IMG/VR virus record: IMGVR_UViG_3300043598_000012
Coordinates: 16,881-80,880 of that record
Length of the DNA stretch: 64,000 nt
Source: a virus
Strand: one strand, 5' to 3'
Below, in pieces: positions 25,870 to 48,884 of this stretch. Made by a program: the position numbers and the translations under genes. The notes beneath the pieces are model-generated. The model was not told where the DNA came from, made no database searches, and saw only the letters and a list, made by a program, of their open reading frames with translations. The stretch's first letter is position 1. The number at the start of each line of letters is the position of its first letter.

Positions 25870-25883
25870 CGTACCATGTCTCG

Positions 25884-25995
25884 GAGAGCCGCAGGTGTTT
25901 GCAACACTTCAACCCCATGGGGTAGATGAGCGACGGAGCCGTGATCCACTTGACCTCTGAGTGGTGCAGGCAGTAGAGGGGCGCCTGCGGCTCTC
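25884..25995 (+). ncRNA. Candidate structured small RNA A (112 nt)
   Basis: TACCAT -10 at 25872, 6 bp before a G start; 5' GAGAGCCGCAGGTGT pairs with 3' GCGCCTGCGGCTCTC (15 bp, 2 G-U); intergenic. Confidence 0.65.
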
Positions 25996-26032
25996 GCTCC
26001 CAACTTGGCGAGCATTGGTGTAAGATGTGGCT

Positions 26033-26329
26033 ATGACCACCGAAAAGGTTCAGCTGCTCGTTCTTCTCACCACCTCTGGGCCGTTGCCCATGGGCTACGC
26101 CGACAGTGACAGGGGCAAGGTGAGCCTGGGGCTCTCAGCGGCTCGCTACCAGCAAGCCAGGCTGGCGCACGGCCACCGCATCGTCGAGCTCTCTCAGCGC
26201 CGAGCTTCCTGGTGGATGTGCCACCAGATGTACGCAGAGCGGCAGATGATGATTGGGCATGCCTTGGCACGGCTCGAAGGCCGCACCTCCATGGGCTACG
26301 ACGAGTGGCGGTGGGGTCGCTTCTCTTGA
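26033..26329 (+). CDS. Hypothetical protein (leaderless)
   Basis: TAAGAT-6 bp-ATG. Confidence 0.55.
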   Translation: MTTEKVQLLVLLTTSGPLPMGYADSDRGKVSLGLSAARYQQARLAHGHRIVELSQRRASWWMCHQMYAERQMMIGHALARLEGRTSMGYDEWRWGRFS

Positions 26330-26390
26330 GGTAGAGGTGTTCTTTCCAACAAGACGTGCGAAGTTGCCAACCGTGAGGCAAGATGTTCCT
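26330..26390 (+). promoter_or_regulatory. Conserved leaderless promoter element, copy 2
   Basis: GGTAG-21-GTGCGA-17-CAAGAT-6-ATG(26391). Confidence 0.85.
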
Positions 26391-26801
26391 ATGACCACCA
26401 CACCTAAGACCGCTGCCGAGTGGATGCGCCACTACGAACATCTGCCGCTGAAGGATCTGAAGATCCACGCTGGACAGAGCATGGGGCTCAGCACCGCCGG
26501 AGGCAGGGAGGCGATCCTGGACCGCATCAGGGCTCTTCAGATCGAGGTGTATGGCCTTCCGACTCTTCCGATCAAAGACAAGATCTGGGACGACACGCTC
26601 TCCGAGTTCGAGAGCAGCTACGAGGCTGTAGGCCATGCGGCCTTCTGGATGTCCTTCACCGGCTCAACCTACGACCACAGCGGCTACTATGAGCTGCGCA
26701 CTCAACTGGAGGATCTTATCGACGAGGGCGAGCCTGAAGATGAGAATTGCCAGGATTTCGAGGCGTCACGTTGGAACGTCTACCAGGACTGTGCGTTCTG
26801 A
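26391..26801 (+). CDS. Hypothetical protein with N-terminal SAP/HeH-like motif
   Basis: YEHLPLKDLK...GLSTAGGREAILDRI. Confidence 0.6.
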   Translation: MTTTPKTAAEWMRHYEHLPLKDLKIHAGQSMGLSTAGGREAILDRIRALQIEVYGLPTLPIKDKIWDDTLSEFESSYEAVGHAAFWMSFTGSTYDHSGYYELRTQLEDLIDEGEPEDENCQDFEASRWNVYQDCAF

Positions 26802-27338
26802 TGGCCCGCTCCAAGAGGACCCTGTTCCTCGACAACCGCAACCGCTGGATCATGTCGGAGCCGACAGACAGCGGGTTCCTCCACACTCGACTCGGCACCA
26901 CCAACACCTTCCAGACGCGAGAGCTCGCCGAGAAGGAGATGGTCCGAGTGGTTCGTCGCAGGCAGCGTGCTGCCGTCAAGCAAAGGAAGTCGGCATGACC
27001 ACCTTCATCACAAAGTTCGAGAACGACTCGATCCACGCTGTGACGCGTCACACATGGCACGTCACAGGTGTTGAGTATCACCGCAACGGCAGCGGAGGGG
27101 AGGGGTTCTATCTCGTCGAGTTCCACCGTGCGGTCATGGCTTCAGAAGACCATCGGCCCAGAGCAGCAAAGCTCTCCAAGGACAGCATCGTCCGCTACTT
27201 GAGCCTTCGAGCGGTAGTCTTCCGGACGGATTGCCATTGTGCTGTGTTCAACCCAGCCAAGGCAGACGACTGTTACCGTGGTGACAATTTCGAGCGTGGC
27301 CTCCGTGAGGTTATCAAGGTCTACGAGAAGTCGCTCTG

Positions 27339-27617
27339 ATGGGCACCCACATCAACGTCGGCCCCCTTCGCTTCCCCAAGCAGGGAGAATGGCTTGGCAA
27401 GCGGGTCAACGTCTGCTTCCACTTCAAGACCGAGGATCTCTTCCCTGGCACCATCGTGCGGGAGGACAGCGAGGAGCCTGGGCGCCTGATCATTGCGCTC
27501 GACGACGGGCGCTACGTCATAAGCACGGAGTGCATGTATAGCTTCAACAACGTGCCAACCAACGAGGGTAACACGCCACCGTTCCCCGGCTTCGAGCATG
27601 TGATGGGAGGTGCGTGA
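27339..27617 (+). CDS. Small beta-rich phage protein
   Basis: TGATG coupling; GKRVNVCF...IALDDGRYV. Confidence 0.6.
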   Translation: MGTHINVGPLRFPKQGEWLGKRVNVCFHFKTEDLFPGTIVREDSEEPGRLIIALDDGRYVISTECMYSFNNVPTNEGNTPPFPGFEHVMGGA

Positions 27618-27869
27618 TGTTCAAGGGCTACCTCACGAGGATGGGAACAGTCACCCAGGACACCAAGTCAGCCGTAGATCCCGGGCTGGCTCGCAAGGGT
27701 GTGCGCTACTCTACCCGTACTGGTGAGGACATCATCGGCGACGTGCACTTGATCCGCTCCTCACCAGCCTTGTGGGATGTCTTTTCACGGAACCCCTATA
27801 GGTTTGCCAGGGTGCAGGCTCCTAACCGGCGCTTCGCCATTGAGGCTGCCTTGGAAGAGGTGAACAGCA

Positions 27870-28292
27870 ATGCCGAAGGGTGATTGCTTCTCACTTGCAC
27901 TATCGCTCGTGGCGGGGTACGTGCATGGTGACCCCGTCAACAATCCCGACGATCAGGCTCCGATGCCTGGCGGCAAGGTCGTCCACGGGCTCCCCATTGG
28001 TCGCGGCCCAGAGAACATGGGCAAGCGGTACTGGCATGCATGGGTAGAGGTTGTCATCAACGGGGTGGTCACCGTCATGGACTACTCCAACGACCAGCGG
28101 ATCACTATGCCCAGGGACGAGTACTACCGCTTCGGTAACATACAGCAGGTGTGGCGCTACAACGCTCACCAAGCCCGAGCTCAGTTCAAGAAGCAGCAGC
28201 GTTGTGGCCCTTGGGTCAAGGGCTGGGAGTCCATGAGCGAGGCCAGCGAGCACCGTCTGGCCGCTGAGCAAGCCGTCGCGGAGGGGTCGTGA
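27870..28292 (+). CDS. Transglutaminase/papain-like protein
   Basis: GDCF...VHG...HAWVE...VMD (Cys-His-Asp triad pattern). Confidence 0.55.
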   Translation: MPKGDCFSLALSLVAGYVHGDPVNNPDDQAPMPGGKVVHGLPIGRGPENMGKRYWHAWVEVVINGVVTVMDYSNDQRITMPRDEYYRFGNIQQVWRYNAHQARAQFKKQQRCGPWVKGWESMSEASEHRLAAEQAVAEGS

Positions 28293-28927
28293 AGAAGAAC
28301 ATCGAGCGCGAGGAGCATCCTGCCTTTGCTATGGCAGAGGTCAACAGGGTGCACGCCACACCGGGCGCCGCTCTGTTCGACAGTGAGCTCCAGCACAGTG
28401 AGTACGTGGTGCTCCGCATCAAGCGAGCCATGCGTAGGCGAGAACTGAAGCGTGATTGGATCACCGACGCCGAGCAGCTCGTTGAGGTTTCCATGAGCAT
28501 GGCCCAGTGGGGTGCCTTAGTGTCTTCGTTTGGCACCAACGGAGTGCCTGTGACCCTCAACTGGCTGTCGGGCGAAGGTGATGTAGAGCGGCTTTCCTAC
28601 GAACCACGCATGGCCGAGTCGCTCAAGGAGATCGAAGGTGCAGCCACAGAGCTGGTGCATGACATTAGGTGGGCAGCGGACGAGCTCCGGGAGGCCTTCG
28701 ACAACAAGGCCAGTCGTCGCGAGGTTGAGGATAAGCTGAGTCACCTGGAGGCCATGATCAACAACGCCCGTGCCGACGCTTGCTTCACGGCCACTCAGTT
28801 CTCCAAGCACGTTGAGAACACCGTCACCAAGGCTCGTGCGGACATCGAAGCCATGGCCGCATCTGCCCAGCAGCGAGGGATCGAGGCGGGTAGCCTGCCG
28901 CTGATGGAGCTTCCTAGTGCCGACTGA
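28289..28927 (+). CDS. Hypothetical phage protein with coiled-coil C-terminus
   Basis: Long coupled ORF (HPAFAM...LFDS...GVPVTL). Confidence 0.65.
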   Translation: MKKNIEREEHPAFAMAEVNRVHATPGAALFDSELQHSEYVVLRIKRAMRRRELKRDWITDAEQLVEVSMSMAQWGALVSSFGTNGVPVTLNWLSGEGDVERLSYEPRMAESLKEIEGAATELVHDIRWAADELREAFDNKASRREVEDKLSHLEAMINNARADACFTATQFSKHVENTVTKARADIEAMAASAQQRGIEAGSLPLMELPSAD

Positions 28928-29654
28928 GAAGCGATGTCGATGCGGGCATCTGATGCGCTGGCACAGGAAGCAGTGGCCAGACCAATGCACGATCTGTGAG
29001 CGTCGCTACGGTCCGACTAGCGCATGCCTACCACCTAAGGGGTGTTCGAACAAGACATCCGCACATAGCACAAAGGCAGGTGTATAATCATTGCGTGGCA
29101 ACGAGAAAGTCAGGAGCAGCCAACCCAGGAGGAACAGAACGAACAAGGAGGCCAGCAGCCAACCTCGTCCAGCTAGCACTCGGGCGAAGCGTCCGGGTGT
29201 GGGGCGAAGCATCGATCACCGTCGCAGTGACGGACGATCCACCGCAGTTCGTCAAGGTGACGTTCGGGCACGAGCGGCTCGCAAGCAACGACAGCGAGCA
29301 GGAGATCCTCAAGACCGAACGTCAGATTCACGCAACCAACAGCAAGGTCGTCGAGCGGAGAGCAAGGGAGCTCCGGCAGCTCGTGCATCGGACGATGGAC
29401 GAGGGCGACTACGGCTGAAGCTCGCACACAAGGATGTTCGCTCCGGTCAGTTCGTCGACCGGCTCGGACAGAAGCTGAGGCAGGGAGCCAAGGTTTGGCA
29501 CTATCCCTACCGAGGTGAGACACGGCATCGAGCCGTAGTGGCGAACGACGGCATCCTGGGACGGATGCTTGCAATCCAACTGGAGGGGGACCCCTTTCCG
29601 GTCAACGTAGACCACCGCAGGGTGGAACTCATGAAGGAGAGAGGACAACAGCAA

Positions 29655-30242
29655 ATGGCAACGACAGCAGCAGCCAACAAGCCTGCGAACGCCCGAGAGG
29701 CGCGAGCCATGGCGAAGGAGCTGGGCATCGAGGGTTGGGAGGACTTGGGCCGAGAGGACCTGCTGTCCGCCATCGCCACTGCTCAGAAGGGAAGTTCAGC
29801 AGCAGCTCCGACCAAGGCTCCAGCAGCCAAGAAGGCTTCAGGGGCCAAGAAGGCTCCGGCGAAGAAGGCAGCCACCAAGCGAGCTCCGGCCAAGGCCAAG
29901 GCTCCAACCAAGAAGGCCAGTGGTGGTCGGGCCAACCCCGATCCCGACGATCCGATCCCGTTCCGTCCGGGCACCAACCTGTACGAGATCGCCAAGGCGC
30001 TCCTCAAGGGCGGCAAGCGGTCGGTCCTCGTCAAGCACCTGAAGCCCAGGCTCAGCTTCAACCCCCGCAAGCAGAGCGCCAAGGACTTCGACACGGATGC
30101 CGAGATCGACCGTCGGCTGAAGGTCATCGGCTACATCCTCAAGAACCAGCACGGCTGGACCTACGCCTCCAACGGCCGCGGTCCCGACGCCCTGATCCAG
30201 GCGACGCCTCCGGGCACTGAGAACAAGGTCGCTGCCAAGTAG
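29655..30242 (+). CDS. Putative nucleoid-associated DNA-binding protein (Rho-N-like domain + PAKK repeats)
   Basis: AREARAMAKELGIEGWEDLGREDLLSAI, histone-H1-like PAKK linker, AAGGAG RBS, downstream terminator. Confidence 0.7.
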   Translation: MATTAAANKPANAREARAMAKELGIEGWEDLGREDLLSAIATAQKGSSAAAPTKAPAAKKASGAKKAPAKKAATKRAPAKAKAPTKKASGGRANPDPDDPIPFRPGTNLYEIAKALLKGGKRSVLVKHLKPRLSFNPRKQSAKDFDTDAEIDRRLKVIGYILKNQHGWTYASNGRGPDALIQATPPGTENKVAAK

Positions 30243-30272
30243 CTCATCCCCAACGGCTACTAGCGGCTGAGC

Positions 30273-30298
30273 CAGTGGGACCCTTCGGGGTCCCACTG
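30273..30298 (+). terminator. Stem-loop with UUCG tetraloop
   Basis: CAGTGGGACCC-TTCG-GGGTCCCACTG, perfect 11-bp stem. Confidence 0.8.
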
Positions 30299-30312
30299 TC
30301 GCGTATGGATGA

Positions 30313-30393
30313 GAATTGCTGCTTTCTTGAGCCGTCAGTGAATTGCTGTTATTTTGGGGCGTCAGTAAATTGCTGCTTTTCGGGGCGTACTAT
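30313..30393 (+). repeat. Three tandem 27-bp imperfect direct repeats overlapping a promoter
   Basis: AATTGCTG at 30314, 30341, 30368; the third unit ends in the TACTAT -10 of the gene at 30400. Confidence 0.85.
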
Positions 30394-30399
30394 GTCGGT

Positions 30400-30804
30400 G
30401 TGGAACCTCGCAACCCTGCTCTCCGAGAGCACGTCACACGAGTCGGCTTCAACCTCTCGCTCACCACCACGCAGATCGCCATCCTCGTCGAGATCAACGA
30501 GTGCTGGGCCAAGGACCGGCACGTCGTAGGTTGGGGTTCTCCTTGGTCACACTTCGCCAGCACGTCGAGAGCTCTCCGAGTTCGAGGTCTGGTGTGGCAC
30601 GAGTTCCCGGAGTGCAGTGCGGAGGATCGCTACAAGCACCCTCCCAGCGAGTACTTCGGGCTCACTGCGGCTGGTCAGTTCGTTGTGGGGTTGCTGTCTG
30701 AGGCAGGCCTCTACGAGGACGTGCTGGAGATGATGCGCCGTCACGAGGCGGAGGGGCGCCTGAAGACGTGGTCTCACGAGCAGCATCTAGCGAACAGACC
30801 TTGA
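30400..30804 (+). CDS. Hypothetical protein, possibly winged-helix (leaderless)
   Basis: TACTAT-6 bp-GTG; ...ALRVRGLV...FGLTAAG wHTH-like pattern. Confidence 0.55.
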   Translation: MEPRNPALREHVTRVGFNLSLTTTQIAILVEINECWAKDRHVVGWGSPWSHFASTSRALRVRGLVWHEFPECSAEDRYKHPPSEYFGLTAAGQFVVGLLSEAGLYEDVLEMMRRHEAEGRLKTWSHEQHLANRP

Positions 30805-30875
30805 GGTAGAAGGGTCTTTCCAGAAACTTTCAGAAATCACGTGCGTTCTGGTTACGGCTGGGGTATAGTCACTTC
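30805..30875 (+). promoter_or_regulatory. Conserved promoter element, copy 3 (+10 bp variant, leadered)
   Basis: GGTAG-31 bp (TTTCCAGAAA/TTTCAGAAA duplicated)-GTGCGT-17-TATAGT. Confidence 0.85.
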
Positions 30876-30920
30876 AGACCGCTTCACCGAGGAGCGGACC
30901 CAGCACCAAGGAGTACCACC

Positions 30921-31202
30921 ATGTTCATGTCCGCCAAGGCCATCAAGCGGTTCGAGGATCTCTACGAGGTGTCCCCCAAGGACGTCAAGGGCCTCAAGTT
31001 CCTCTCCATCTCCCGCTCCACCGGCACCCTCGTCGCCACGTACGACGGCACCAAGATCGACGTCGGCCAGACCGCTGACGACTTCCGTTGGGTGACCGTC
31101 GACGAGGACAAGGGCATCCTCACCACCCACGAGTCCCTCTCGGACGCTCGCTACGCAGCCAGCTTCCCCGAGCTCTGGGCCGACGAGTCCGTCGCTGCCT
31201 GA
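30921..31202 (+). CDS. Hypothetical protein, probably highly expressed
   Basis: AAGGAG RBS, strong C/G third-position bias, flanking hairpins. Confidence 0.8.
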   Translation: MFMSAKAIKRFEDLYEVSPKDVKGLKFLSISRSTGTLVATYDGTKIDVGQTADDFRWVTVDEDKGILTTHESLSDARYAASFPELWADESVAA

Positions 31203-31225
31203 CCCCCTCAACGTACACTAGATCT

Positions 31226-31397
31226 GGTAGGGGCTCCGGCCCCTGTTCTAGGAGAGGGGGTGAGGCCGATGCGGGCAAGCGTCGCCAAAGCGACATCGGA
31301 TGCGCACCGATTGCCCTAGCAATTCAACCACACAATGATGCGCAACGACACTTGTCTGGTTACGGTAGGTAGGCCTCTTTCCGGAGGCCTACCGCCG
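31226..31397 (+). ncRNA. Candidate structured small RNA E
   Basis: TACACT -10 at 31214 +6; 5' hairpin, several internal helices, terminal GGTAGGCCTC/GAGGCCTACC hairpin. Confidence 0.4.
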
Positions 31398-31551
31398 CGT
31401 TTGGGCTTTGTTCGTGCTTCTTGGGGCGAGCTCGGCGTATACTCTTGGTGAAGCGGTTGGTGGTACTTCTGCTTCCGCTCCCCGCGAGCGTTGCTGGTCA
31501 TCGAGTTGGAGCCCTTGCTACGGCGAGGGCTTCGCTCGTGTTGCGTACAAG

Positions 31552-32010
31552 TCAAGCGGCTCTCAGGTATGCAGCAGCTCGCTCTAGCACGGCAGGGTCG
31601 TCGTTCGCAGCGGGCAGCAGGCTGCTGTTGCAGCGATGACAGAGGAGACCCCGCACTCTACCGGTCTTGTGGCAGTGATCGACATGCAAGGTACCCCATC
31701 TGCCCGAAGGCTTCTTCCGGCAGATGGCACAGCGTCCTCTTTGTTTCTTGAGCATGGCCTCGTACTCAATGAGAGTGATGCCGTACTTGCTCATCAGGAA
31801 GGTTTCTTTGTTGCGACGCTTCACAGCTGCAAGTCGCTTGGGGTCCTCCTTGATGGCATGCCAGCGAGCCTTTGCTGCTTCTGGAGAGTCAACCACGGAG
31901 CATCGGTAGCCGCCAGACCTATGTCTGACCTTCACAGGCCCACACTGAGCACATCTTGCTGTCATCGCTTCTGGATCTATATCGCTCAGCCTGTGTAGGT
32001 GTTTGCCCAT
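31552..32010 (-). CDS. Endonuclease VII-type HNH homing endonuclease
   Basis: YGITL...QRGRCAIC...VDHCHKTGRVRGLLCHRCN. Confidence 0.88.
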   Translation of the reverse strand: MGKHLHRLSDIDPEAMTARCAQCGPVKVRHRSGGYRCSVVDSPEAAKARWHAIKEDPKRLAAVKRRNKETFLMSKYGITLIEYEAMLKKQRGRCAICRKKPSGRWGTLHVDHCHKTGRVRGLLCHRCNSSLLPAANDDPAVLERAAAYLRAA

Positions 32011-32481
32011 AGAGGACGATCATACCGCAAATGGCTTGTGCGTAAGATACTAGCCTATGACCAAGCGAACCAAGCAGGACGAGTGGCCTCCTCTCTGGGC
32101 CATCTGGGGGCTCAGGAAGGGCTGGCACCCTCTGGAAGCTGGAGCATGGCATCCCCTGTTCCACTACAAGTCAGAGGCTGGAGCCAGGCGAGGAGAGCGG
32201 CTCGTGATCGAAGCTCAGGCTCATGAGAAGCACCTGCTGAGCCTCACACGAGGAGTCCGCGGTAGGCACGGTGCAGGCATCCAGGGCTACGTCCGCTTCA
32301 AGGCGGTGAGGCCAGGGTCCACGCCAGTCAACCCGGCCAAGGTGCGCCCCACGAGGCGCCGTAAGAGCTGCCTCCGCTGCCACCACTCGATGCCGGTGAA
32401 GCGTTGGCGCATGCTCCGGCAGTGCTCCGAGTGTGGGTGGGTGCCCAAGCCCTACCGTCGAGCGCGAGCTGCATAGTCCCA

Positions 32482-32542
32482 GGTAGCAATGTTCTTTCCA
32501 CAAGCACGTGCGGAGCTTGAAGGGATGTGTAAAGATAGCGTC
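32482..32542 (+). promoter_or_regulatory. Conserved leaderless promoter element, copy 4
   Basis: GGTAG-21-GTGCGG-17-AAAGAT-6-ATG(32543). Confidence 0.8.
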
Positions 32543-32781
32543 ATGGACACCAACGATCGTCGCCAAGGACCCCGTCGGGCATCCGAGCAGAGGGCACACC
32601 TCGCTCGGGAGCTCATCCTGGAGCAGGCACGAGCTCTCGTCAGCATAAACCGCCGACCGGCCACCACGTTGGTCGAGCAGAGCGAGCAGGCAGTCGACAT
32701 GCGTCGCAAGGTGGCCGACCTGGGCACCCTGATCGACACGCTCGACGAGGCAGAAGAGCTTGTCAAGCAGGAGCGAGTCAA

Positions 32782-34143
32782 GTGAGCGAGTTCGTCGGCA
32801 ACGACCCCATGATGAAGCACCTCGTGGAAGGCACCTTGCCTGCCGTCCTCTCCGAGGACGACCAGCTCATCGCAGGACGAGGCAAGACCTCCGGCGACAA
32901 GCTGGAAGCGATGCTCCGCAAGGTGAGGGCTCTCCTCACTCAAGCGGAGGACCCCGGAGCCACCCCGCAGGAGGCTCAGATCTTCCGCAACAAGGCGGAG
33001 GCTCTCATGCTCCGCTACCGGATCGACGAGGCCATGCTGGCCGACGCTCCGGACACCGGTCTCATGCCTCAGTGGAACACGATCATCGTGTGTGAGAAGA
33101 GCCAGTACCGCTCCTTCTACGAGGGCATTGCCAAGAAGGTCGTCGAGCACGTTGGTGCTCGGGGCGAGATCAAGCGCACCTGGGATGACCGTGGACACTA
33201 CATCGTCGAGCTGCACTACGTTGGGTTCCCCAGCGACATCCGGCTTGTCGACATGCTGTACACCACAGCACAGGTGGCCTTCAACACCAAGCTGGAGCCC
33301 AAGTACAACCCGGAGCTCTCCGACCAGGAGAACGCCTACAACATGCGCCATGCGGGCATGGAGGGTTGGCGCATCGCCATGGCCATCTGGGGGACACGAG
33401 GCAACAGTGTGTGCTGCGACAAGCGGAGCCACTGGAGGCAGTGCGAGCCGTGCGGCCAGGGCCACCATGACCAGTGCGCCATCCCGGAGGTCAACGACGC
33501 CAACCTGTACAAGGCACGTCGGCTCTTCAAGAAGGAGGCCTTGGAGCGCGGGGAGGATCCGTCCTCATTGCTCGGCCAAGGCAACTCGATGCAGGTGTAC
33601 CGGGACAGCTACGCCAATGGCTTCTACTGGGAGCTGTTGCGGCGCCTCCGGGAGATGCAGGACAGCCGTGGCTCCGAGTCCGTCGGCATTGAGCTCGGCG
33701 GACGTAGGGAGAAGATCGACCAAGCCTTCTACCGTGAGTACCCGCAGTACGCTCCAGCCAAGGCAGCCATTGGTTACGTGGCTCCGGAGGGTGAAGCAGA
33801 CATCGACGAGGAGGAGGCTGACAAGGAGCTCCGTTGCCCGTGGGATGGCTGTGGCGAGGTCGTCGAGGCAGGAGACGACCCGTGTCCGCACTGCGGGCTC
33901 CCCATTGATTGGGCAGCCAAGCTGGACCGCAACCACGGTCGAGGCACCTATCAGGACCCCCGAGAGGGCTGTGAGAAGTGCCAGCGGGCCAAGAGCGGCT
34001 ACTGCCGAGACCACTCGTACCTCCGGCCCAGCACGGCTCAGTACCGAGAGCGTGCCCACAGCCCAGCGGGGGAGCGTGCCGGTCGTGCAGCGGCTCGCAG
34101 CGTGGACCTTGGGCGAGGACCACGAGGCAGGTTGGGCTCGTAG
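32782..34143 (+). CDS. DUF2786-like domain protein with zinc-finger insertions
   Basis: KVRALLTQAE...TPQEA...KAEALMLRYRID; several CxxC motifs. Confidence 0.75.
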   Translation: MSEFVGNDPMMKHLVEGTLPAVLSEDDQLIAGRGKTSGDKLEAMLRKVRALLTQAEDPGATPQEAQIFRNKAEALMLRYRIDEAMLADAPDTGLMPQWNTIIVCEKSQYRSFYEGIAKKVVEHVGARGEIKRTWDDRGHYIVELHYVGFPSDIRLVDMLYTTAQVAFNTKLEPKYNPELSDQENAYNMRHAGMEGWRIAMAIWGTRGNSVCCDKRSHWRQCEPCGQGHHDQCAIPEVNDANLYKARRLFKKEALERGEDPSSLLGQGNSMQVYRDSYANGFYWELLRRLREMQDSRGSESVGIELGGRREKIDQAFYREYPQYAPAKAAIGYVAPEGEADIDEEEADKELRCPWDGCGEVVEAGDDPCPHCGLPIDWAAKLDRNHGRGTYQDPREGCEKCQRAKSGYCRDHSYLRPSTAQYRERAHSPAGERAGRAAARSVDLGRGPRGRLGS

Positions 34144-34148
34144 TCCCA

Positions 34149-34209
34149 GGTAGAGAGGTTATTTCCAGAATCACGTGCGAAGTTGGAAAGCCTGAGGTAA
34201 GATGCTCTC
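34149..34209 (+). promoter_or_regulatory. Conserved leaderless promoter element, copy 5
   Basis: GGTAG-21-GTGCGA-17-TAAGAT-6-ATG(34210). Confidence 0.88.
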
Positions 34210-35943: not shown

Positions 35944-35991
35944 TTTCCAAGAACACGTGCGAATCTTCGCAGGGTGAGGCATAGTGTTGGT
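35931..35991 (+). promoter_or_regulatory. Conserved leaderless promoter element, copy 6
   Basis: GGTAG-21-GTGCGA-17-CATAGT-6-ATG(35992). Confidence 0.88.
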
Positions 35992-36960: not shown

Positions 36961-37021
36961 GGTAGGAGCGTTCTTTCCAGAAAGGCGTGCGAAGTGGAGA
37001 GCGGTGAGGCATAGTGTCCCT
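36961..37021 (+). promoter_or_regulatory. Conserved leaderless promoter element, copy 7
   Basis: GGTAG-21-GTGCGA-17-CATAGT-6-ATG(37022). Confidence 0.88.
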
Positions 37022-37348
37022 ATGACCACAACCACTGACACCACCACCGCATTCTACGCTTGGGGCTCCGAGCAGGAGAGCATCGACAACAAGCAGATGG
37101 CCCGCATCGTCTCCGGAGTCGACGAGGTCGTCCGCTCCGCCAAGCAGGCCATCAAGGAGCTGGAGGAGCTCGTCGCCAAGGTCACGGCCGTGGATCCGGA
37201 GGAGATGGTTCTCTCGGGCGATCGTGCCCTGTCCGCTGTCCAGCACTTCGCACGGCATGCTGGCTACAGCAACTCACCGGCCACCTACGTCGCCGAGACC
37301 TACGCAGCCGCTGGCAAGGTGGCTGGGCAGCTGGAGATGGTCTTCTAG
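37022..37348 (+). CDS. Hypothetical helical protein (leaderless)
   Basis: Starts at +1 of promoter copy 7; terminator downstream. Confidence 0.7.
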   Translation: MTTTTDTTTAFYAWGSEQESIDNKQMARIVSGVDEVVRSAKQAIKELEELVAKVTAVDPEEMVLSGDRALSAVQHFARHAGYSNSPATYVAETYAAAGKVAGQLEMVF

Positions 37349-37388
37349 CCTCCGCAGACCAACAGCAGAACTCAGGCACAACGGAGTC

Positions 37389-37414
37389 AGGCCACTCGCA
37401 AGAGTGGCCTTCTT
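37389..37414 (+). terminator. Intrinsic terminator
   Basis: AGGCCACTC-GCAA-GAGTGGCCT followed by TCTT. Confidence 0.8.
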
Positions 37415-37551
37415 CGTGTGCATAGGACCTTCTTAGCATCCGCAGAGGCCGCTTGCTACAGATCGAGGCACCTACACCTCCAGCAGGACGCTCGGGAGCC
37501 CTTAGCGGACGTTTCACCGAGCCACTCGGCACTTGAGGTAACATGGCTGGC

Positions 37552-38244: not shown

Positions 38245-38254
38245 CTAGTTACCA

Positions 38255-38315
38255 GGTAGAAGCGTTCTTTCACAGAACGCGTGCGTTCTTGTCACTGATC
38301 AGGCATAGTGTTGGT
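38255..38315 (+). promoter_or_regulatory. Conserved leaderless promoter element, copy 8
   Basis: GGTAG-21-GTGCGT-17-CATAGT-6-ATG(38316). Confidence 0.88.
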
Positions 38316-38518
38316 ATGACCGCTTCCGAAACCACCGCAGTGCTCCACGAGCTCATCAACACAGGGTCGGCTCGCCGCCAGGGTGGAGTCAAGATCTCCA
38401 CCATCGCCTCTCGGCTCGGCTGCTCCGTCAGCGAGGTCGAGTTCGACGCTGCTGTCCACCAGATCAACCACGCCACCTGCGTGGTGTCCTTCCGACCCAA
38501 CTCGGCGGAGGCCTGCAA

Positions 38519-38965
38519 GTGAGCATCACCTTCACCTTCGGCACCGTCGCTGACAACGGCGCCACCAGCATCGGTCTCCTCCACGAGCACCTGTGCCCGA
38601 CGCCCGACGCCTGCGAGGACGCCCAGATGTACTCGCCTGCCTGCTGCGACCATGCCGAGGCACTCGTGGCTATGTGTGGCTGCCAGCACTTCGACGTCAA
38701 CGCCTCCTCGGCCAACGCATCTGTCATCCTCTCCCGGATGGGCATCGCAGGCCAGATGGTGGGCACCATGGACGCTGAGGACTACCTGGGCAGAGTGCTG
38801 CTGGCCCAGCTGGAGGATCCAGCGCCAGTCATGGTTGGTGGAGCTGTCGAGGCAGCCTTCGGGGTGGGCGCAGTCGAGGCCAACGCTGAGGCACACCACT
38901 GGCACCGGCTGGAGCGTCTGGCCCACGAGGCTCGGCTCTCGGGCTGGCTTGTGGCCTGGGCCTAG
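38519..38965 (+). CDS. Hypothetical Cys-rich protein
   Basis: GTGA coupling; typical codon usage. Confidence 0.6.
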   Translation: MSITFTFGTVADNGATSIGLLHEHLCPTPDACEDAQMYSPACCDHAEALVAMCGCQHFDVNASSANASVILSRMGIAGQMVGTMDAEDYLGRVLLAQLEDPAPVMVGGAVEAAFGVGAVEANAEAHHWHRLERLAHEARLSGWLVAWA

Positions 38966-39535
38966 GGGCTCGCCAGGAAACCGCGTGTCGAGGAGCTCGA
39001 CATGGGGTAGAGTGGGGCCATGGACATGGCACTCGCACTTCGTCGGCAGCTGGCCACCACGGCACAGCGACGGCTCGCCGAGCTCCGCATCGCTGCTCCC
39101 CACCGGGAGATCGGCTCCGCCATCGTCGACGAGCTCGACGAGGACGAGGTGCTGCGAGCCTCCTAGAGCTCCCAGCCAGGAGGTGGGCTGTCCGTCTCCT
39201 CGATGGTGAGGCCAGGCAGATCGAGCCGGATGGCGTAGCCCCAGTCCATGTGCGCCCAGAGGAAGCCGTGCTGGTCTCTGGAGACGTGCTCTAGGACGCC
39301 AGCAGCGCCTCCTGCTTGGCCTGCCTTGCCTCGCCACTGGATGTGCACGTAGCGGCCCACCAGGCTACGAGCTCCGCCTCGACATGGATCGGGACAGCGA
39401 GACCTACATGCAGGACGTGCCGGTCTACTTCGACGAGGCTCGCCTCTACGCCACCATCGACCACCTCTCCGACGTGCGCTACGGGCTCGTCTGAGGCATA
39501 GTTCCTACGTACCACCAACCACAAGGAGACACACC

Positions 39536-39919
39536 ATGCGTACCCTGAAGACCCTCGCTCTGGCCGGAGGCCTCGTGCTCGGAGCAGCTGCCTGCTCTCC
39601 GCTCTCGATCCACGGCACCTGGGTCAAGACACCTCCGGCGCAGACCTCCCAGGTCGAGGACGACCCCAACTGGGACTGCCTCAACTCGGGCAACGGGCTG
39701 TGCGGACCTCTCAAGGCACAGGTCAACTGCTCGACGGGCTGGGTCAAGGTCTACGACCGCTTCGGCACTCAGGTCATGAACCTCGCTCCGGCTCAGGTCG
39801 AGGTCCTGCCCACGGGCTACATGGTCCTGGAGGACACGGACGGAGACGCCCCCTACGGAGGCACGCAGCTCGACGGGTTCCTGGGCACGGTGTTCCCAGG
39901 CAACTACAACGCCTGCTAG
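39536..39919 (+). CDS. Lipoprotein
   Basis: Signal peptide with LGAAAC lipobox; AAGGAG RBS; partial GTGCGC-17-CATAGT promoter at 39474-39502. Confidence 0.75.
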   Translation: MRTLKTLALAGGLVLGAAACSPLSIHGTWVKTPPAQTSQVEDDPNWDCLNSGNGLCGPLKAQVNCSTGWVKVYDRFGTQVMNLAPAQVEVLPTGYMVLEDTDGDAPYGGTQLDGFLGTVFPGNYNAC

Positions 39920-39995
39920 ACCTCCTCTACTCCGCTCTACGGCTGCGTGGCGCCCCTTGTGGGCGCCACTGCCGCGCTTGAGGTAGGATGTCAGC

Positions 39996-40331
39996 ATGGA
40001 CGCTCTAGATCTCGCTTGGTTGGCTGGGCTGTTGGAGGGTGAGGGCTCCTTCGGACTCAAGAAGTACAAGAGGAAGCGTGGAGGAGAGCGTGGCTATCCC
40101 ATTGTCAAGGTCAAGATGACGGACAGGGATGTCGTCGAGCGTGCGGCTGTTCTCTTCGGAGACAGTGCGGTGCTCGTGTGTCCTCCTCCAGCCAACTATC
40201 CACACCACAAGGTCCAGTACAGGACAGAGGTGACTGGCTCTCGGGCTCGCCAGATGATGTGCGAGCTTCGACCTATGCTTGGGCTACGACGCCAAGCGCA
40301 AGTGGATACAGCTCTCAGCTGGCAGCACTAG
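39996..40331 (+). CDS. Single-motif LAGLIDADG homing endonuclease (leaderless)
   Basis: LAWLAGLLEGEGSF; TAGGAT-6 bp-ATG. Confidence 0.85.
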   Translation: MDALDLAWLAGLLEGEGSFGLKKYKRKRGGERGYPIVKVKMTDRDVVERAAVLFGDSAVLVCPPPANYPHHKVQYRTEVTGSRARQMMCELRPMLGLRRQAQVDTALSWQH

Positions 40332-40653
40332 AGCCACCGTCGCGTCCGGGCTCCGATGCTGCTAGGAGGAGCGAGGCCAGAACGTCCGGGACCTCGACTC
40401 GTAGGTCACGAGTGCCTCCTGCTCCAGTCAACCACACGGTGTTCTCGTGGACTGTCAGGCCTGCCTCCACGAGTAGCTGGAGCAGGGTGCGGTGTAGGTC
40501 GAGCTCCTCCCATGCCTCGCCCAACTCCTCCCAAGCCTCGTTGAGCATGCGGTCCTGCTCCAACCGAGGGGCCAGAGCCTCCTTGTCGAGACCCTGTAGT
40601 AGGTCTACGGGCGGGTGCTCGGAGGGTACATGGATGTGTAGGTGGAGGTCCAT
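40315..40653 (-). CDS. Hypothetical protein (leaderless)
   Basis: TACTAT-6 bp-ATG on the minus strand. Confidence 0.55.
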   Translation of the reverse strand: MDLHLHIHVPSEHPPVDLLQGLDKEALAPRLEQDRMLNEAWEELGEAWEELDLHRTLLQLLVEAGLTVHENTVWLTGAGGTRDLRVEVPDVLASLLLAASEPGRDGGSSAAS

Positions 40654-40689
40654 GCCACCATAGTACGGCACTCCAACTGAAGTGCGGGC

Positions 40690-41430
40690 GGTTCTAGAGG
40701 CAGACCCTCTACTACTCCAGCATGCTCTCACCTACAGGTCTATCTATAGGTGACAAGAGAGACCTACCATCTACCACATAGTCCCAGTACAACTGTCTCA
40801 CTTCGACCTTCGGTCCCACGATCCCAGGGTCCAATGACGATGAGAGTAGGTCTATCACTCTCCATGGATCTGTGGACATCTCCTTGTCACTAATAGGTCT
40901 ATCATTGTCATGCTACTCCACTCTATGCTGGGGTAGTAGAGCTCCCGCAAACAACCTATTGGTGACAAGCCTGCCCTTCTTTAACCTTAAACTAAAGGAC
41001 TCAGACTCCTTCACTCCAAGCAATAGACCTCTAGGCTTCTACTTCTACCCTTGAGTCTAAGAGGGCATCGTGACAACCCTCTACTTGGCGGTGATCCTCT
41101 AACCCAGTGAGGTGAGGTCTATCCATACACCTCTATGACTCTACCCTCTACTCTATATAGACTGATGATCATCATGACTCTATGTCTATCTACTGCTATG
41201 CTCCTACTCCTCGTCACTTCATGTAGGTCTATAGGCCTATCCTCTTGTCATCATGTAGGCCTATTGGACCCCGCCCCTCTTTATCCTTGCGATTTTTTGT
41301 CTACCTCTGATCCACCTCCCCAATCCCAATGTCACAGATAGAAGCATTCCACTCTTTCCACATAGCACGGCGCCATCTACGTCTACTAGACCAACTTCGG
41401 CTACACGCCGCCTGATTTCCATGACAGGTA
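40690..41430. other. Long A/T-richer non-coding region with iterated motifs (candidate origin or packaging/terminus region)
   Basis: AGGTCTAT x6 and TGACAA/TTGTCA x6, 16-bp inverted repeat, pyrimidine skew, flanked by divergent genes. Confidence 0.6.
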
Positions 41431-42812
41431 GCGTAAGATAGAGGGGGTACCAGCCAACCCACTTGGGAGACCCAATGGCATCACCCATGACCACACATCT
41501 AGTAGAGGAACTCGACCGTCTCACACGGGAGAACGGCACGGAGCATCCAAGCTGCCCCATCTGCAAGGGCAAGGTGGAGTTGACGCCCACGCATGCCATC
41601 GTCTGCGTAGATTACGGTTCTGATCACTACCGCTGGGAGCTACCTGCGGTTGAGGTGCGGGAGCCCAAGCCTTCAGGTGTCCATGGCAGGTAAGCACACA
41701 CCCCGAGACACGGGCAACCGAGGGCACATGACCCACACCCCCTTCCGGGCGTCGGTGCTACCTACGGTGCACCTAGAACAGCCGGGTACGTCCGCCAACG
41801 CAGACGCCTATGGGCGGCAGGCCATCCCGCTCCAGCGGACCCTGACGGTGTTCTGCTGGTGCTACTACCGGGAAGTGCCCGTGGCCCAGCGAGACGTCAA
41901 GGCGGGCCTCACGGGACCCTGCGAGCTGCTCTGGTGCTTGGAGACCGACCGCATCAAGCGTAACCAGTACGGGCCACCGGGACCCACGTCATGACTGCTT
42001 ACAACGGGATGTACCGCTGCCCTGGAGGCCAGAAGCCGCCTGCTAGGCGTCGAGGGTGGGCGGCGCAGTGCTCGGAGTGCGGACGCTGGGGAAAGACCTA
42101 TCCAAATGGCACGGTGGTCATGCACAAGCGGCGCCGAGCAACCAAACCGCCTTCGCCTGCGGCGTAGGATATGGTTATGGGAACCATCGAAGCGTTGGAA
42201 GAAGCGATCACCTACCTGGCGGACACGCACAACCTGTACCTGTGGCGTGTGAACGAGAGACTGGGTGGAGAACATGTGAAGGGTTGGGCCTTCGCTCGTC
42301 GGGGGCTCCGTAATGACTTCCAGGCCGACACCATCAGCGGCGCCGTGACCTTCAACCTGGAGAAGATTCGGGAGGACAACAGGCTGGCACAGAAGAAGAC
42401 TCAGGAGAGCTTGGAGACCACCATGTACACCTCCACCAGAGTCGGCGAGCTTCTCAGCAAGATTCGCACAGCGGAGTGACGGTTACCGTCAACATCCCTG
42501 GGCGAGCCTACCTGGCTTGCCTCGATCCCCTCGCTACTGGCGTACCCGAAGAAGAGGGGTGGCCGGAGCCCCGCATCATCAAGCGAGGTAGGCTGGAGTT
42601 CAGTGCTCGCTACGAACTCACCCGGTACCAGGCCTACCAGATGATGACGCACATGCGGGACTTCGGGGAGACGCTGGGCGGCGCAGGCGTCGACGATGAG
42701 CTGCGAGAGGGTCCTGCCTGCCTCAGGGGCGCCTATGCCCTGGCCAAGGCTCTCGGCCACGAGGACGAGCTCTACCCCGCCACTCGGCCACCTCGTGACG
42801 TAGGATAGGTCT

Positions 42813-42899
42813 GAAAGAGGGGCGAGTACTCTTGGTGAACCTCCGAGCCAGATGGGGACGATCTGGCCGCAAGGTCGACCGGCTCTGCTCGCCCCTCTT
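42813..42899 (+). ncRNA. Candidate structured small RNA B (about 87 nt)
   Basis: TAGGAT -10 at 42801 +6; AAGAGGGGCGAGTA pairs with TGCTCGCCCCTCTT (14 bp, 1 G-U); GCAA-loop hairpin inside. Confidence 0.65.
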
Positions 42900-42913
42900 C
42901 GTACCATGGGGGT

Positions 42914-43303
42914 ATGACACCCACACTTGGACGCATCGTGCTCTATCGGACGGACGGTCGCAACGGGCTGGTCTATGACCTCCCGGCGATCATCACCTGC
43001 ACGGCGGAGACCCACCCTGGCAACTACCCGGACGGCAGCACCAACCCGTTGCCGGTGCCCGGACGAGACGAGGTGCACCTGACGGTGTTCACTCCCGGAG
43101 GGTTCGGCACCAAGGTGGGACCGTGGCCTGACTCGGGACCTCGTCAGCCTGACACGGACGCCGACTTCAAAGATGCCACGCAGCTGGTTCCTGGGAGCGG
43201 CACCTACGTCGAGCTCTTGGTGCCCTACGCCTTCGGCGGTGAGGCAGCACAGAGAGGTGCCGACCTCCCGCATCGCACCTGGCGTTGGCCGGAGCGCGTC
43301 TGA
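42914..43303 (+). CDS. Hypothetical phage protein (leaderless)
   Basis: PTLGRIVLY...PAIIT...HLTVF...TWRWPERV; TACCAT-6 bp-ATG. Confidence 0.7.
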   Translation: MTPTLGRIVLYRTDGRNGLVYDLPAIITCTAETHPGNYPDGSTNPLPVPGRDEVHLTVFTPGGFGTKVGPWPDSGPRQPDTDADFKDATQLVPGSGTYVELLVPYAFGGEAAQRGADLPHRTWRWPERV

Positions 43304-44634
43304 TGGAAGACATCAGGGGCGTCGAGTTCACCACCTACATCCCGGCTGGCATCAAGAGCACCGAGGAAGCCGTAGCGCACCTTGCTCCACTGTTCTCGCC
43401 CGATGCGAGCGTCGTCATCGCTGCCATGGAGTACGACTACATCGGCGAGTACGGGCAGACAGCTCAGCATCCTGTCAAGCTGGAGGTGCGAGACCGAGCC
43501 TGGGTCACCCTCACCACGGAGCCTCCGCAGCCACGAGACCCTGGTCGGAAGACCTCAACGGGGACCTGATGGACCTCAACGAAGCTACTGAGCAAGAGCT
43601 GGTCAAGGCGCTCGCTCGCCTCAACCTTAATCGGGACACTTCAACCCGGTACGTCTACGACGGGCTTGGCCAGCGGTTCGAGATCGCTTACCTTTCCACA
43701 TACAGGACCGGCAAGCGGCAGTACACTTGCCTTGACGCTCCGTTCGATGGCTAACACACCCAGGAGCTCAGAGAGCGCCATCTACCTTGTGGTGCCCACT
43801 TGGTGGAGTTCTGTGATGGTTTGGCAGACACGCTGGAGCATCTGGCGCATCGACCAGAACCGCAAGGCCATCGCCAGGCATAGGAAGAGCCTCCAGGTCT
43901 ACGCCGAGCGTGCGAAGAGGTGGTTGTGATGGAGCGACCCACCAACGAGTACTTGGTCTTCGAGGAGCACGAGCCTGCTCAAGGAAAGAAGACCAAGACG
44001 GTTCATGTCAAGTCGGTTCGAGGCGCCTACTTGGGGATGATCATCTGGTACGGGGCCTGGCGGTGTTACACCTTCCAGCCAGCTCCCGTCACGGTGTTCA
44101 ACCACGGGTGTCTCAAGACGATCAACGAGTACATCGCTCAGCTGATGGATGAACGCCGGTGACATCTTGGTGGCATTGGGCGCTCTGGGGTCACGACCTC
44201 TTCTGGCCCTGGGAGTAGGATTCACTTCATGGGAGCGCCCTTCACACAAATGGACATGGCAGCCGCGAACGAGAGCTGTGGAGCCCCAGAGCCTGTGTTC
44301 GACGACTGCCCCGCTTGCAGGGGTCGAGTGGGGCTGCATTGCGCCGAGTGCAAGATTCAGGTCACCGGCTGCACTTGCACGGAGGCAGCCCGCTTCGACC
44401 CCCTCACAGCTTGGGAGGCCACCTGCCAGAGGTTGGGGGAGGACGAGGCGAGGAAGGCATACAAGTCGGCGGGCATCCCGATCCCCGGAGAGGGGCTGAT
44501 CCTTCCATGAGCCAGTATAAGAATCCACACAAGAGCGCGGTGCCGTGGGGACTTTGGGCGCTGGTGATCGTCATGTTGGCGGTCGTGTTCTGGAACGTCT
44601 ACCAGATGGCGGAGCACTGACGTACGATCCTCTC

Positions 44635-44756
44635 GGAAGGTCCTGGCTCGGCAGCATGGACCTTTCGGCAGTGCGGGGTACTGAGAGCGGGGCGGCTTGG
44701 GCTTGGTGTCAGAAACGGCTCCTCGGAGGCCTGAGTCGCCTCGCTCTTCGCTTTTC
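44635..44756 (+). ncRNA. Candidate structured small RNA C (about 120 nt)
   Basis: TACGAT -10 at 44623 +6; three consecutive hairpins, the last a 21-bp stem with 5 G-U pairs, then a T-rich tail. Confidence 0.6.
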
Positions 44757-44769
44757 GTAGCATAGGTGT

Positions 44770-45237
44770 ATGGCACACCCCCGCAACATGACGCAGACGG
44801 CGCCGTACCCCACAGAGCTCGCTGAGCTCGTGGAGGGCTTCCACTACCGTCCTGGCTGGCAATGTCGACTGCTCGACGACTTCGTGCGAGAGCGGGAGGA
44901 TCCTGCTGATGACAGCTCTCCGCCGCTGGTCTGGGGACTGACCCTCGACATCATCACTCGGGGCTACAACTCCTACCACCCTGAGCAGGGCCAGAACTAC
45001 GGGGTTCATCACTACATGATCGTGCCAGCGGCCACGTACAACCGTGAGTCATGGCAGAGGTGGCTCCTCAACCAGCACTTCCTCGTCGAGCAGCACGAGA
45101 CGTGCGAGTTCTTCGTGGTGAACGGTGAGCATCCGTTCGCGCCTAACCACGGTCCTGGCAACGACCCCTACAGGGTGGTCGAGTACGCTCCTGATGAGGA
45201 CCGGCGGACCTCGTTTCGAGGCGTCGTCAAGGACTAG
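44770..45237 (+). CDS. Hypothetical phage protein (leaderless)
   Basis: TAGCAT-6 bp-ATG; typical codon usage. Confidence 0.7.
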   Translation: MAHPRNMTQTAPYPTELAELVEGFHYRPGWQCRLLDDFVREREDPADDSSPPLVWGLTLDIITRGYNSYHPEQGQNYGVHHYMIVPAATYNRESWQRWLLNQHFLVEQHETCEFFVVNGEHPFAPNHGPGNDPYRVVEYAPDEDRRTSFRGVVKD

Positions 45238-46014
45238 ACGTGCCCAAGAGCTGCGAGGACTGCAACGGCAAGGGAGCTCGCTCGGCTGTCGCTGGGCACT
45301 GCTTCGACATCGACGGCGGGCTCTGGCATGGCCCAGGCGAGTGCCACAGCTGTGCCCCAAGTTGCTGCCCGCCTTGTCCCACCTGCGGCGGCAGAGGGAC
45401 CCTCTCGACGCCAGAAGAGCTCGCTCTGAGACTGGTAGAGGCCTTCTGGGGGGATGAGACCAACTGGATCGACTTGAATGGCACGTATTTGACACTAGAT
45501 GGCCAAATTGGGGGCGTTTCTGACGAAATTCGGGGTTTTATCAACGAAATGGACCAAAAGTGGCGAAATTCGCCACTAGGAGGCGGATAATGTGGAAAAT
45601 CTGCCATTTTGGCCATTTTTCGTCATTTTGGGGTGAAAAGTGACAGAAATCACATGCGGTGCCTGTGGGGGCACCGGAGAGATAGAAATGGCAAATCCTC
45701 CGTTGGATCCTGTCACTTGGGAGTGCAGGGAGTGTGATGGGATGGGGATTGACCCTAAATACACCCGTCGCATGGAAAAGCGCCAGGATCAGCTGTGAAT
45801 CTCCGCTGGGAGGGCTGGGTGCGCACCAGAAACGGCGCTATCACCTGCTATGTGCGGATCAAGGCTGAAGATGCCGTGGACGCCGTCCATCGAGCACAGG
45901 CATCTGCTCACCGCAAGCATGGCAACAAGCAGTACGGGCTCGACGACTTCGTCTGCATCGGGGTCTCGCTCCACGAGGGCGACCAGAACCTGATCGGCGA
46001 CGTACCATAACGTC

Positions 46015-46163
46015 GAGAGAGTGGCCGGTCATGTACCGTCTGCGTTGTGCTCACAAGACAGCGGACCAGCAAAGGCAAGCTCTGTCAGTACGTGGATGTC
46101 GTGCGGAAGCCCGACGTGATGCGGCCTTCAACTTGCGGGCTCTGAGCGTCCGGTCACTCTCTC
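46015..46163 (+). ncRNA. Candidate structured small RNA D (149 nt)
   Basis: TACCAT -10 at 46003 +6; GAGAGAGTGGCCGG pairs with CCGGTCACTCTCTC (14 bp, 1 G-U); multibranch interior. Confidence 0.65.
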
Positions 46164-46234
46164 GCCTAAGATGTTCTTGGAGCCGAGCTGGCCCGCCTCC
46201 GCGGCGACACCGAACGGCCCCTGCGGAGGGCGTC

Positions 46235-46561
46235 ATGAGCGACCAGACACCGGAACACGTTTGCGAAACAGTTCCGCCTACGGAGCGTGAGGAGCCGTTC
46301 CTCGTCGACCCCGGCTGGGTCGATATGCGGCTCGTCACAAACCTCCACGGCGACGATCACCGCATCCTGTTCTACGAGGACGGCACGGCCCGGTTCGAGC
46401 ACCGCTGCTGGCGGTGGGAAGACGAGTCGGTCATCTGTGCCCCGGTCCTGTTCGACCACCAGATCACCCGTGACCCGCTGGTCATCACCCCGTCGATCGA
46501 CTGCCCGGATTGCCGCCTGCACGGCCTCATCATCAACGGGAGGTGGCTCGATGCAGCCTGA
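46235..46561 (+). CDS. Small metal-binding protein (DUF6527-like)
   Basis: PLVITPSIDCPDCRLHGLIINGRW. Confidence 0.6.
   Translation: MSDQTPEHVCETVPPTEREEPFLVDPGWVDMRLVTNLHGDDHRILFYEDGTARFEHRCWRWEDESVICAPVLFDHQITRDPLVITPSIDCPDCRLHGLIINGRWLDAA

Positions 46562-48332: not shown

Positions 48333-48884
<552 letters not shown>

Follow-up and report, generated by a model that had tools for sequence, protein, structure and literature searches.

Type I small RNAs derived from 3' untranslated regions, for example DapZ and MicL of enterobacteria, are transcribed from a promoter at the end of the upstream coding sequence and fill the 3' untranslated gap, with a terminal hairpin that they have in common with the upstream messenger RNA (mRNA). 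The oop RNA and the PR'-tR' 6S transcript of phage lambda are short RNAs with their own promoters, ending at a hairpin a few tens to 200 nucleotides (nt) downstream. In phage T7, the RNase III signals (R1.1 and others) are intergenic and promoter-adjacent (positions reported by Dunn and Studier 1983). Here we analyze four intergenic elements, A to D, and a weak fifth, E, in a 64,000-nt stretch of phage DNA (the window), which comprises bases 16881-80880 of IMG/VR virus record IMGVR_UViG_3300043598_000012 (total 80,880 bp). The host is very probably an actinobacterium, because the phage has an Rpf-type transglycosylase gene, a DNA match to Mycobacterium phages and an actinobacterial promoter grammar.

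The feature common to A to D, a promoter joined to a long helix, is real and statistically supported. In our preferred interpretation, to which we assign a probability of roughly 40%, these elements would be short non-coding transcription units with nuclease-resistant, clamped ends, placed between gene cassettes. A promoter consisting of a -10 box only, on or just past the upstream stop codon, would fire at a G. The RNAs of A, B and D would then fold into a panhandle, their first 14-17 nt pairing with a segment 85-150 nt downstream, and that of C would open with a local hairpin and close with a 22-bp hairpin and an imperfect U-tract. Such a clamp would hide the 5' triphosphate end. It would also define or protect the 3' end, which in C would arise by termination and in A, B and D by processing or by exonuclease trimming. 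The expected products are RNAs of about 90-150 nt that resist nucleases and stop right before the next promoter; the same helix may also end or protect upstream messages. On this reading, discrete RNAs would accumulate, and their largely open interiors would let them act in trans.

Elements and promoters

The elements and the -10 boxes on either side of them are as follows.

25872-25877, + strand: first -10 box of A, TACCAT (CG before it), 3 nt past the helicase stop codon at 25867-25869; score 8.6
25884-25995, + strand: element A, predicted start G at 25884
26021-26035, + strand: second -10 box of A, TAAGAT, then 6 nt and leaderless ATG at 26033 of a 98-amino-acid (aa) gene; score 14.3
42801-42806, + strand: first -10 box of B, TAGGAT, overlapping the stop codon at 42806-42808 of gene 42476-42808; score 13.4
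42813-42899, + strand: element B, an irregular 87-nt rod, predicted start G at 42813
42902-42916, + strand: second -10 box of B, TACCAT, then 6 nt and leaderless ATG at 42914 of a 129-aa gene; score 14.5
44623-44628, + strand: first -10 box of C, TACGAT, 3 nt past the stop codon at 44618-44620; score 11.1
44633-44748, + strand: element C, predicted start G at 44635
44758-44772, + strand: second -10 box of C, TAGCAT, then 6 nt and leaderless ATG at 44770 of a 155-aa gene (phrog_1540); score 15.9
46003-46008, + strand: first -10 box of D, TACCAT, overlapping the stop codon at 46008-46010 of gene 45819-46010; score 10.6
46014-46164, + strand: element D, predicted start G at 46015
46167-46172 (unit to 46237), + strand: second -10 box of D, TAAGAT, then a 57-nt leader and ATG at 46235; score 9.5
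31214-31394, + strand: weak element E, -10 box TACACT, G at 31226; score 7.3

About 16 intergenic (C/G)G-TANNAT boxes lie 6-8 nt ahead of the ATG or GTG of codon-biased open reading frames (ORFs) and mark leaderless genes. A weight matrix derived from these boxes, with a list threshold of 9 bits, returned 28 sites on the + strand and 5 on the - strand in a genome scan. Judged by their letters, the first boxes of A to E are of the same class: CGTACCAT at 25870-25877 (A) and again at 46001-46008 (D), CGTAGGAT at 42799-42806 (B), CGTACGAT at 44621-44628 (C) and CGTACACT at 31212-31219 (E). They score 13.4 (B), 11.1 (C), 10.6 (D), 8.6 (A) and 7.3 (E), and the first promoters are as good as gene promoters. 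A consensus promoter scan at the element loci found no promoter with a -35 element. As the initial annotation had reported, each of the five boxes is followed by 6 nt and then a G, at 25884 (A), 42813 (B), 44635 (C), 46015 (D) and 31226 (E). The first boxes of A to D overlap the upstream stop codon or begin at most 3 nt past it.

A second -10 box of the same class lies 2-25 nt past each helix of A to D, at 26021, 42902, 44758 and 46167, and those of A, B and C lead into leaderless ATG codons at 26033, 42914 and 44770. The earlier claim that the next gene has its own promoter thus holds for all four. Because the genes downstream of A to C are leaderless and have no Shine-Dalgarno sequence, they would be poorly served by mRNA from the first promoter. 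This bears on the idea that the elements are structured 5' leaders of tandem-promoter mRNAs, in which the first-promoter RNA would read into the downstream operon, the second promoter would supply a leaderless isoform, and the 5' structure would stabilize the mRNA or modify the polymerase in the manner of HK022 put antitermination. Structure does begin at +1 in all four elements, as in 5' stabilizers, and they stand where cassettes meet, in an early-looking block whose small genes have no Pfam family match; moreover, read-through is expected of A, B and D, which have no U-tract (PMC3993855). We nevertheless consider leaders unlikely, given that the first downstream gene of A to C would have no ribosome-binding site on such a transcript, that stabilization would need only a local hairpin, whereas the pairing partner in A, B and D is far away, and that there is no common motif for the polymerase or a shared factor.

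Helices and folding

Helices were scanned as uninterrupted stems with G-U pairs allowed and a span of at most 220 nt, and folding z-scores were computed against dinucleotide shuffles. The long stems first noticed by eye were confirmed, at 17 (A), 14 (B), 22 (C) and 15 bp (D), and are among the longest intergenic helices of the genome. The closing helix of A pairs 25884-25900 with 25979-25995 (17 bp, 4 G-U) around a 78-nt interior, that of B pairs 42815-42828 with 42886-42899 (14 bp, 1 G-U), and that of D pairs 46014-46028 with 46150-46164 (15 bp, 1 G-U) around an interior of about 120-121 nt. Whole-element z-scores are -3.2 for A, -5.8 for B (folding energy -51.1 kcal/mol) and -3.3 for D. In A, B and D, at most 2 nt separate the predicted start from the 5' end of the helix, whereas the helix of C comes after a 5' hairpin; in all four, the predicted RNA start falls within helical structure. 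The outer 12 pairs form with a probability of 0.97-1.0.

Element C has a 5' hairpin at the start site (44633-44668; modest, z -2.2), then a small hairpin, then a 22-bp helix with 6 G-U that pairs 44683-44704 with 44727-44748 and runs into the tail CGCTTTTCG, an imperfect U-tract. It folds with -68.3 kcal/mol (z -5.6). By its predicted fold, this layout is that of a textbook bacterial small RNA: one hairpin at the 5' end, one in the middle and a long one at the end that leads into an imperfect U-tract. C is the strongest candidate for a new small-RNA gene among these elements, and the only one for which a defined 3' end is plausible.

Helix length alone, at 14-17 bp, is unremarkable, as five shuffled genomes yield 2-7 helices of at least 14 bp each, the longest of 15-18 bp; the conjunction with promoters is unlikely by chance. 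Of the 67 predicted starts, five have the 5' end of a helix of at least 11 bp at -2 to +3 nt, where 0.73 would be expected (p = 9e-4), and so do 3 of the 28 best-scoring starts (expected 0.30, p = 4e-3). The 22-bp helix of C is longer than any in the shuffled genomes. The other leaderless promoters of the genome are mostly without an upstream hairpin, which argues that the elements are not a general insulator requirement.

The initial annotation had taken the G-U pairs on the + strand as a sign of RNA pairing. We compared + and - strand folding energies in 100-nt windows genome-wide (sd of the difference, 6.6 kcal/mol). The argument stands for C, whose + strand folds 28.5 kcal/mol better than its - strand (top 0.1% of genome windows), and fails for A (-7.5), B (-3.8) and D (-11.9 kcal/mol), all within 1-2 sd. 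Apart from one G-T each, B and D are almost perfect inverted repeats, and they show no significant strand bias, as would suit repeats that act at the DNA level by binding proteins, forming cruciforms or recombining at cassette borders. That explanation appears very improbable to us, since the 4 G-U pairs of A and the 6 of C become A-C mismatches on the opposite strand, the arms lie 57-121 bp apart, and the genome has no transposase and no further copies. Each element is single-copy with no match to other loci, which also removes a miniature or other multi-copy mobile element (MITE). The arm sequences differ among all four elements, leaving no common binding site, and their complementarity is retained; pairing, rather than a DNA-binding site, is therefore what the four have in common.

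Less of the proposed shared architecture survived. One long end-clamping helix is present in A, B and D; the multibranch fold is not, as the interiors of A (z 0.0, equal to shuffles) and D (z +1.2) are no better than shuffled sequence, and that of B is weak (z -1.6). What is shared is thus a promoter, a clamp and a promoter. The helix arms do open with GAGAG or AAGAG, as described earlier. UUCAAC is not a shared motif, TTCAAC being a common hexamer that occurs 40 times on the + strand of the genome, and a shared-motif search across the elements found only helix-arm words such as AGAGGGGCG and GGCTCT recurring.

Coding potential and family membership

The elements had been called non-coding. 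This is borne out for B to D, which show no coding signal by codon bias, and no credible Shine-Dalgarno-led ORF was found; it is less clean for A, whose interior has a coding-like periodicity. Over 25884-25976, A has a strong 3-nt G+C periodicity, with the 2 mod 3 positions at 87-90% G+C (top 4.4% of genome windows). The 59-codon open frame on the - strand of A is probably not a protein, its residues being 25% Cys, His and Trp, and none of the small ORFs on A (the longest 16-17 codons), whether leaderless or Shine-Dalgarno-led, is credible. D sits in an open frame, 46031-46561, in phase with the next gene; its 68 open codons show no codon bias and were rejected as coding sequence. Third-position G+C in this frame is low until about 46235, where a Shine-Dalgarno-led ATG opens the real gene. 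In the leader of that gene (46173-46237), CCTCCGC can pair with GCGGAGG at the ribosome-binding site, whose Shine-Dalgarno sequence is GGAGGG, as read from the sequence, and a hairpin there would be a possible translational control.

No known family accounts for the elements. The window has no match at Rfam 15 gathering thresholds, a test that covered 6S, Y RNA, pRNA, 6C, ribozymes and riboswitches, and E-value scans of the elements against Rfam up to E 10 gave chance-level matches only (E >= 0.35). ARAGORN found no tRNA or tmRNA gene in the window. Both checks agree with the initial annotation. A bacterial Y RNA (YrlA) acting with Ro/Rsr was rejected, the phage having no TROVE domain and the elements no tRNA-like or Rfam match, as was a retron msr-msd RNA, with no RVT_1 match in the whole phage record; the absence of Ro/TROVE and of reverse transcriptase would leave a Y RNA or a retron RNA without its obvious protein partner. 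Anti-Shine-Dalgarno loops were likewise dismissed, because the CCUCC runs of B and C are paired rather than displayed. Of the attributes that generally mark an independent small-RNA gene (its own promoter, no coding potential, a defined 3' end and a discrete transcript), the first two are supported.

A terminator scan, with the canonical intrinsic terminator taken as a GC-rich hairpin with a 3-8-nt loop and an immediate U-tract (at least 5 U in 8), found none at A to D. A, B and D have no U-tract, and the imperfect one of C, CGCUUUUCG, falls outside this definition. Mycobacterial RNA polymerase tolerates imperfect U-tracts for termination, though not their absence (PMC3993855). RNase III substrates comprise about two turns of RNA double helix, or helices that stack coaxially (PMC1540722), a length rule that C (22 bp) and B (a quasi-continuous rod) satisfy and that the helices of A (17 bp) and D (15 bp) do not reach.

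These features would also suit a cis-acting mRNA punctuation, in which the helices are host RNase III processing sites, or 3'-end hairpins that stop or protect the upstream message, or both. Transcripts from the first promoters would then simply start inside the signal, in an arrangement that resembles the promoter-adjacent RNase III sites of phage T7. In its favor, the closing helix is the only statistically supported part of A and D, the unrelatedness of the four sequences suggests a sequence-independent role of double-stranded RNA, C and B obey the two-turn or coaxial-stacking rule, A, B and D lack U-tracts, and the helices form in a read-through context as well (probability 0.68-0.96). Simple hairpins without U-tracts also stand behind other phage genes (4626-4663 and 62896-62931), and, although we found no RNase III gene in the phage, Actinobacteria encode one, as seen in control genomes. 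Punctuation leaves unexplained, however, why a high-scoring -10 box precedes the helix by exactly 6 nt every time, and why the interiors measure 57-121 nt when hairpins elsewhere in the genome are compact; most leaderless promoters have no such element upstream, and the helices of A, B and D (14-17 bp) are shorter than two helical turns. We regard it as a close competitor of the transcription-unit interpretation, short of an even chance.

Relatives and balance of evidence

Megablast and blastn searches of the elements against 50,697 phage records returned no match to any of them, and no similar stretch turned up in the other genomes scanned. The helicase adjoining A has three close relatives in the protein collection (71-76% identity); none were found when close helicase relatives were sought in the viral, metagenome and genome collections. 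Broader helicase profiles reached 5 phage records (73-90 kb, 36-45% identity) and 20 metagenome loci; in none of these is the helicase gene followed by an element, or is there a promoter-structure-promoter unit. A candidate unit in a related phage (35133-35246) was discarded as lying inside a coding region. A search of six genomes for two boxes 60-210 nt apart, the second leaderless, retrieved A, B and C of this phage only; two weak matches in relatives are both unstructured. Searches with the flanking genes found homologues of the gene downstream of B in two phages (59% and 62% identity). The phage was found in two sequencing runs, both of DNA, probably from the source sample and without variants, and in no RNA run.

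Several observations weigh against independent RNA units. The promoter of A, at 8.6, falls below the 9-bit list threshold. The interiors of A and D are random in structure, and the strand bias of B and D, with one G-U each, is within genome noise. With the U-tract requirement of the mycobacterial polymerase, its absence from A, B and D makes read-through likely, and the clamps form in read-through transcripts too. Antisense matches of the elements to phage transcripts are not above shuffled controls; with no target in the phage above chance, any trans role would be on the host. Element B is absent beside both homologues of its downstream gene, which is preceded there directly by a coding gene or a Shine-Dalgarno site, and no homologue of any element was found in the relatives retrieved, covering 8 phage or metagenome contexts. 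The elements are therefore lineage-specific, by sequence comparison, at the depth of relatives compared.

Their absence from relatives at about 60% identity raises the alternative that the elements are relics or coincidences, that is, decayed leaderless gene cassettes with the promoter retained, the ORF lost and inverted repeats without present function. The shuffled helices of 14-18 bp, the coding-like 3-nt GC periodicity of A and the unstructured interiors of A and D would all fit such decay. The coincidence of helix start and transcript start is unlikely by chance, however, the 22-bp helix of C beats every shuffle and has its 6 G-U on one strand only, and in compact phage genomes four relics of 90-150 nt beside strong promoters would be unusual, so that we hold this origin to be quite improbable.

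Of the undescribed small-RNA repertoire first proposed, the promoter-anchored and non-coding nature and the position outside Rfam remain; a structured repertoire with a common fold does not. A bolder version of the transcription-unit interpretation is that A to D are four unrelated panhandle small RNAs, each with a -10-only promoter overlapping the preceding stop, whose open interiors would engage host RNAs or RNA-binding proteins in trans while a lytic-type actinophage takes over the cell. We think this version doubtful; if true, the panhandle repertoire would be a new phage small-RNA design with members outside the described families. Decoy or antitoxin-mimic roles are pure speculation.

The phage and neighboring features

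The 80,880-bp phage record has direct terminal repeats, 60% G+C and nearly all genes on the + strand, and originates from a soil metagenome. Its gene set includes DNA polymerase III alpha, RecA and an SNF2 helicase. Gene 48333-48884 encodes a secreted protein with a signal peptide and an Rpf-like transglycosylase domain (PF06737, E = 1e-29); it is overlapped by an ORF at 48062-48643, which a simple gene caller chose. The match to Mycobacterium phages is a 90-nt stretch within gene 44770-45237 (megablast/blastn, the same phage records). Gene 2305-2760 encodes a 151-aa protein with sigma-70 region 2 (PF04542, E = 2e-7) and no region 4; judging by its domain content, such a region-2-only sigma factor could read -10-only promoters. 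The amino acid:DNA transferase domain encoded by gene 16928-17884 (PF18724, E = 3e-23) suggests that the phage hypermodifies its own DNA bases.

B to D are surrounded by small genes, none of the 12 scanned having a Pfam family match, in an early-looking block; to its left lies a repeat-rich region of 845 bp that has divergent promoters. This region (40654-41498) is non-coding and A+T-richer, with many AGGTCTAT and GTGACAA repeats. Divergent leaderless promoters border it, serving a - strand gene at 40315-40653 and a + strand start at about 41446. Its sequence suggests a control region or a replication origin.

Element E, put forward as a weaker fifth member, keeps its box 6 nt before a G and loses its structure: about 140 nt show no significant fold (z -0.6), and then comes a hairpin, at about 31368-31393, whose tail is rich in U. 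The neighbors of E are a + strand gene on one side and, on the other, the 3' end of an endonuclease VII gene encoded on the - strand. This endonuclease VII/HNH gene (31552-31896) is the lone - strand gene within a + strand block and converges on E; a + strand promoter at 31438 would transcribe antisense to it. Elsewhere, at 37349-37542, a 17-nt direct repeat, CTTCT(T)AGC(C/A)TCCGCAGA, stands on either side of a strong hairpin and U-tract at 37389-37420 (z -5.6). The repeat's first copy and the stop codon of gene 37022-37348 overlap, and the -10 box score is low; by its sequence, this region may be a further short non-coding unit.

A second promoter class in this genome is an eight-copy intergenic element, GGTAG..TTCTTTCCA..CACGTGCG..-10 box..ATGACCACC, with an upstream element. 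It drives leaderless genes that have a common N-terminus, MTT, and a scan of the motif against the viral collection gave single chance matches only.

1461-1521, 26330-26390, 30805-30920, 32477-32524, 34144-34209, 35944-35991, 36966-37021 and 38245-38315: copies of the eight-copy promoter element

Comparison with known systems

The non-coding RNAs of actinobacterial phages are almost uncharted, and A to D stand as well-defined orphan candidates. If A to D are real transcripts, they offer a compact test-bed (promoter, clamp, next promoter) for the punctuation of leaderless genes or for stable regulatory RNAs. If they are instead processing or 3'-end signals, they would bear on the question of how Actinobacteria, with few canonical U-tract terminators, end their transcripts (PMC3993855).

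Like lambda oop and 6S, A to D are predicted to be short phage units with their own promoter and a downstream hairpin. The lambda RNAs have canonical terminators and known roles, as an antisense RNA to cII and as a substrate of Q antitermination, whereas no antisense target or antiterminator was found in this phage. The T7 RNase III signals resemble A to D in being intergenic, irregular double-stranded hairpins directly downstream of promoters, within transcription in one direction, and in that they can leave protective 3' hairpins on upstream messages. The T7 hairpins measure 60 nt and have a conserved internal loop, whereas the helices of A to D enclose 22-121 nt and are followed by a further promoter; the host, moreover, would be an actinobacterium, and RNase III cleavage of A to D is only putative. 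Compared with small RNAs of the DapZ and MicL type, A to D, which are predicted from sequence alone, have no Hfq context, clamp the 5' end to the 3' end in three of the four, and have a second promoter directly after them. As in that type, the promoter sits where the upstream coding sequence finishes, and the putative RNA would have its terminal hairpin in common with the upstream mRNA and occupies the 3' gap.

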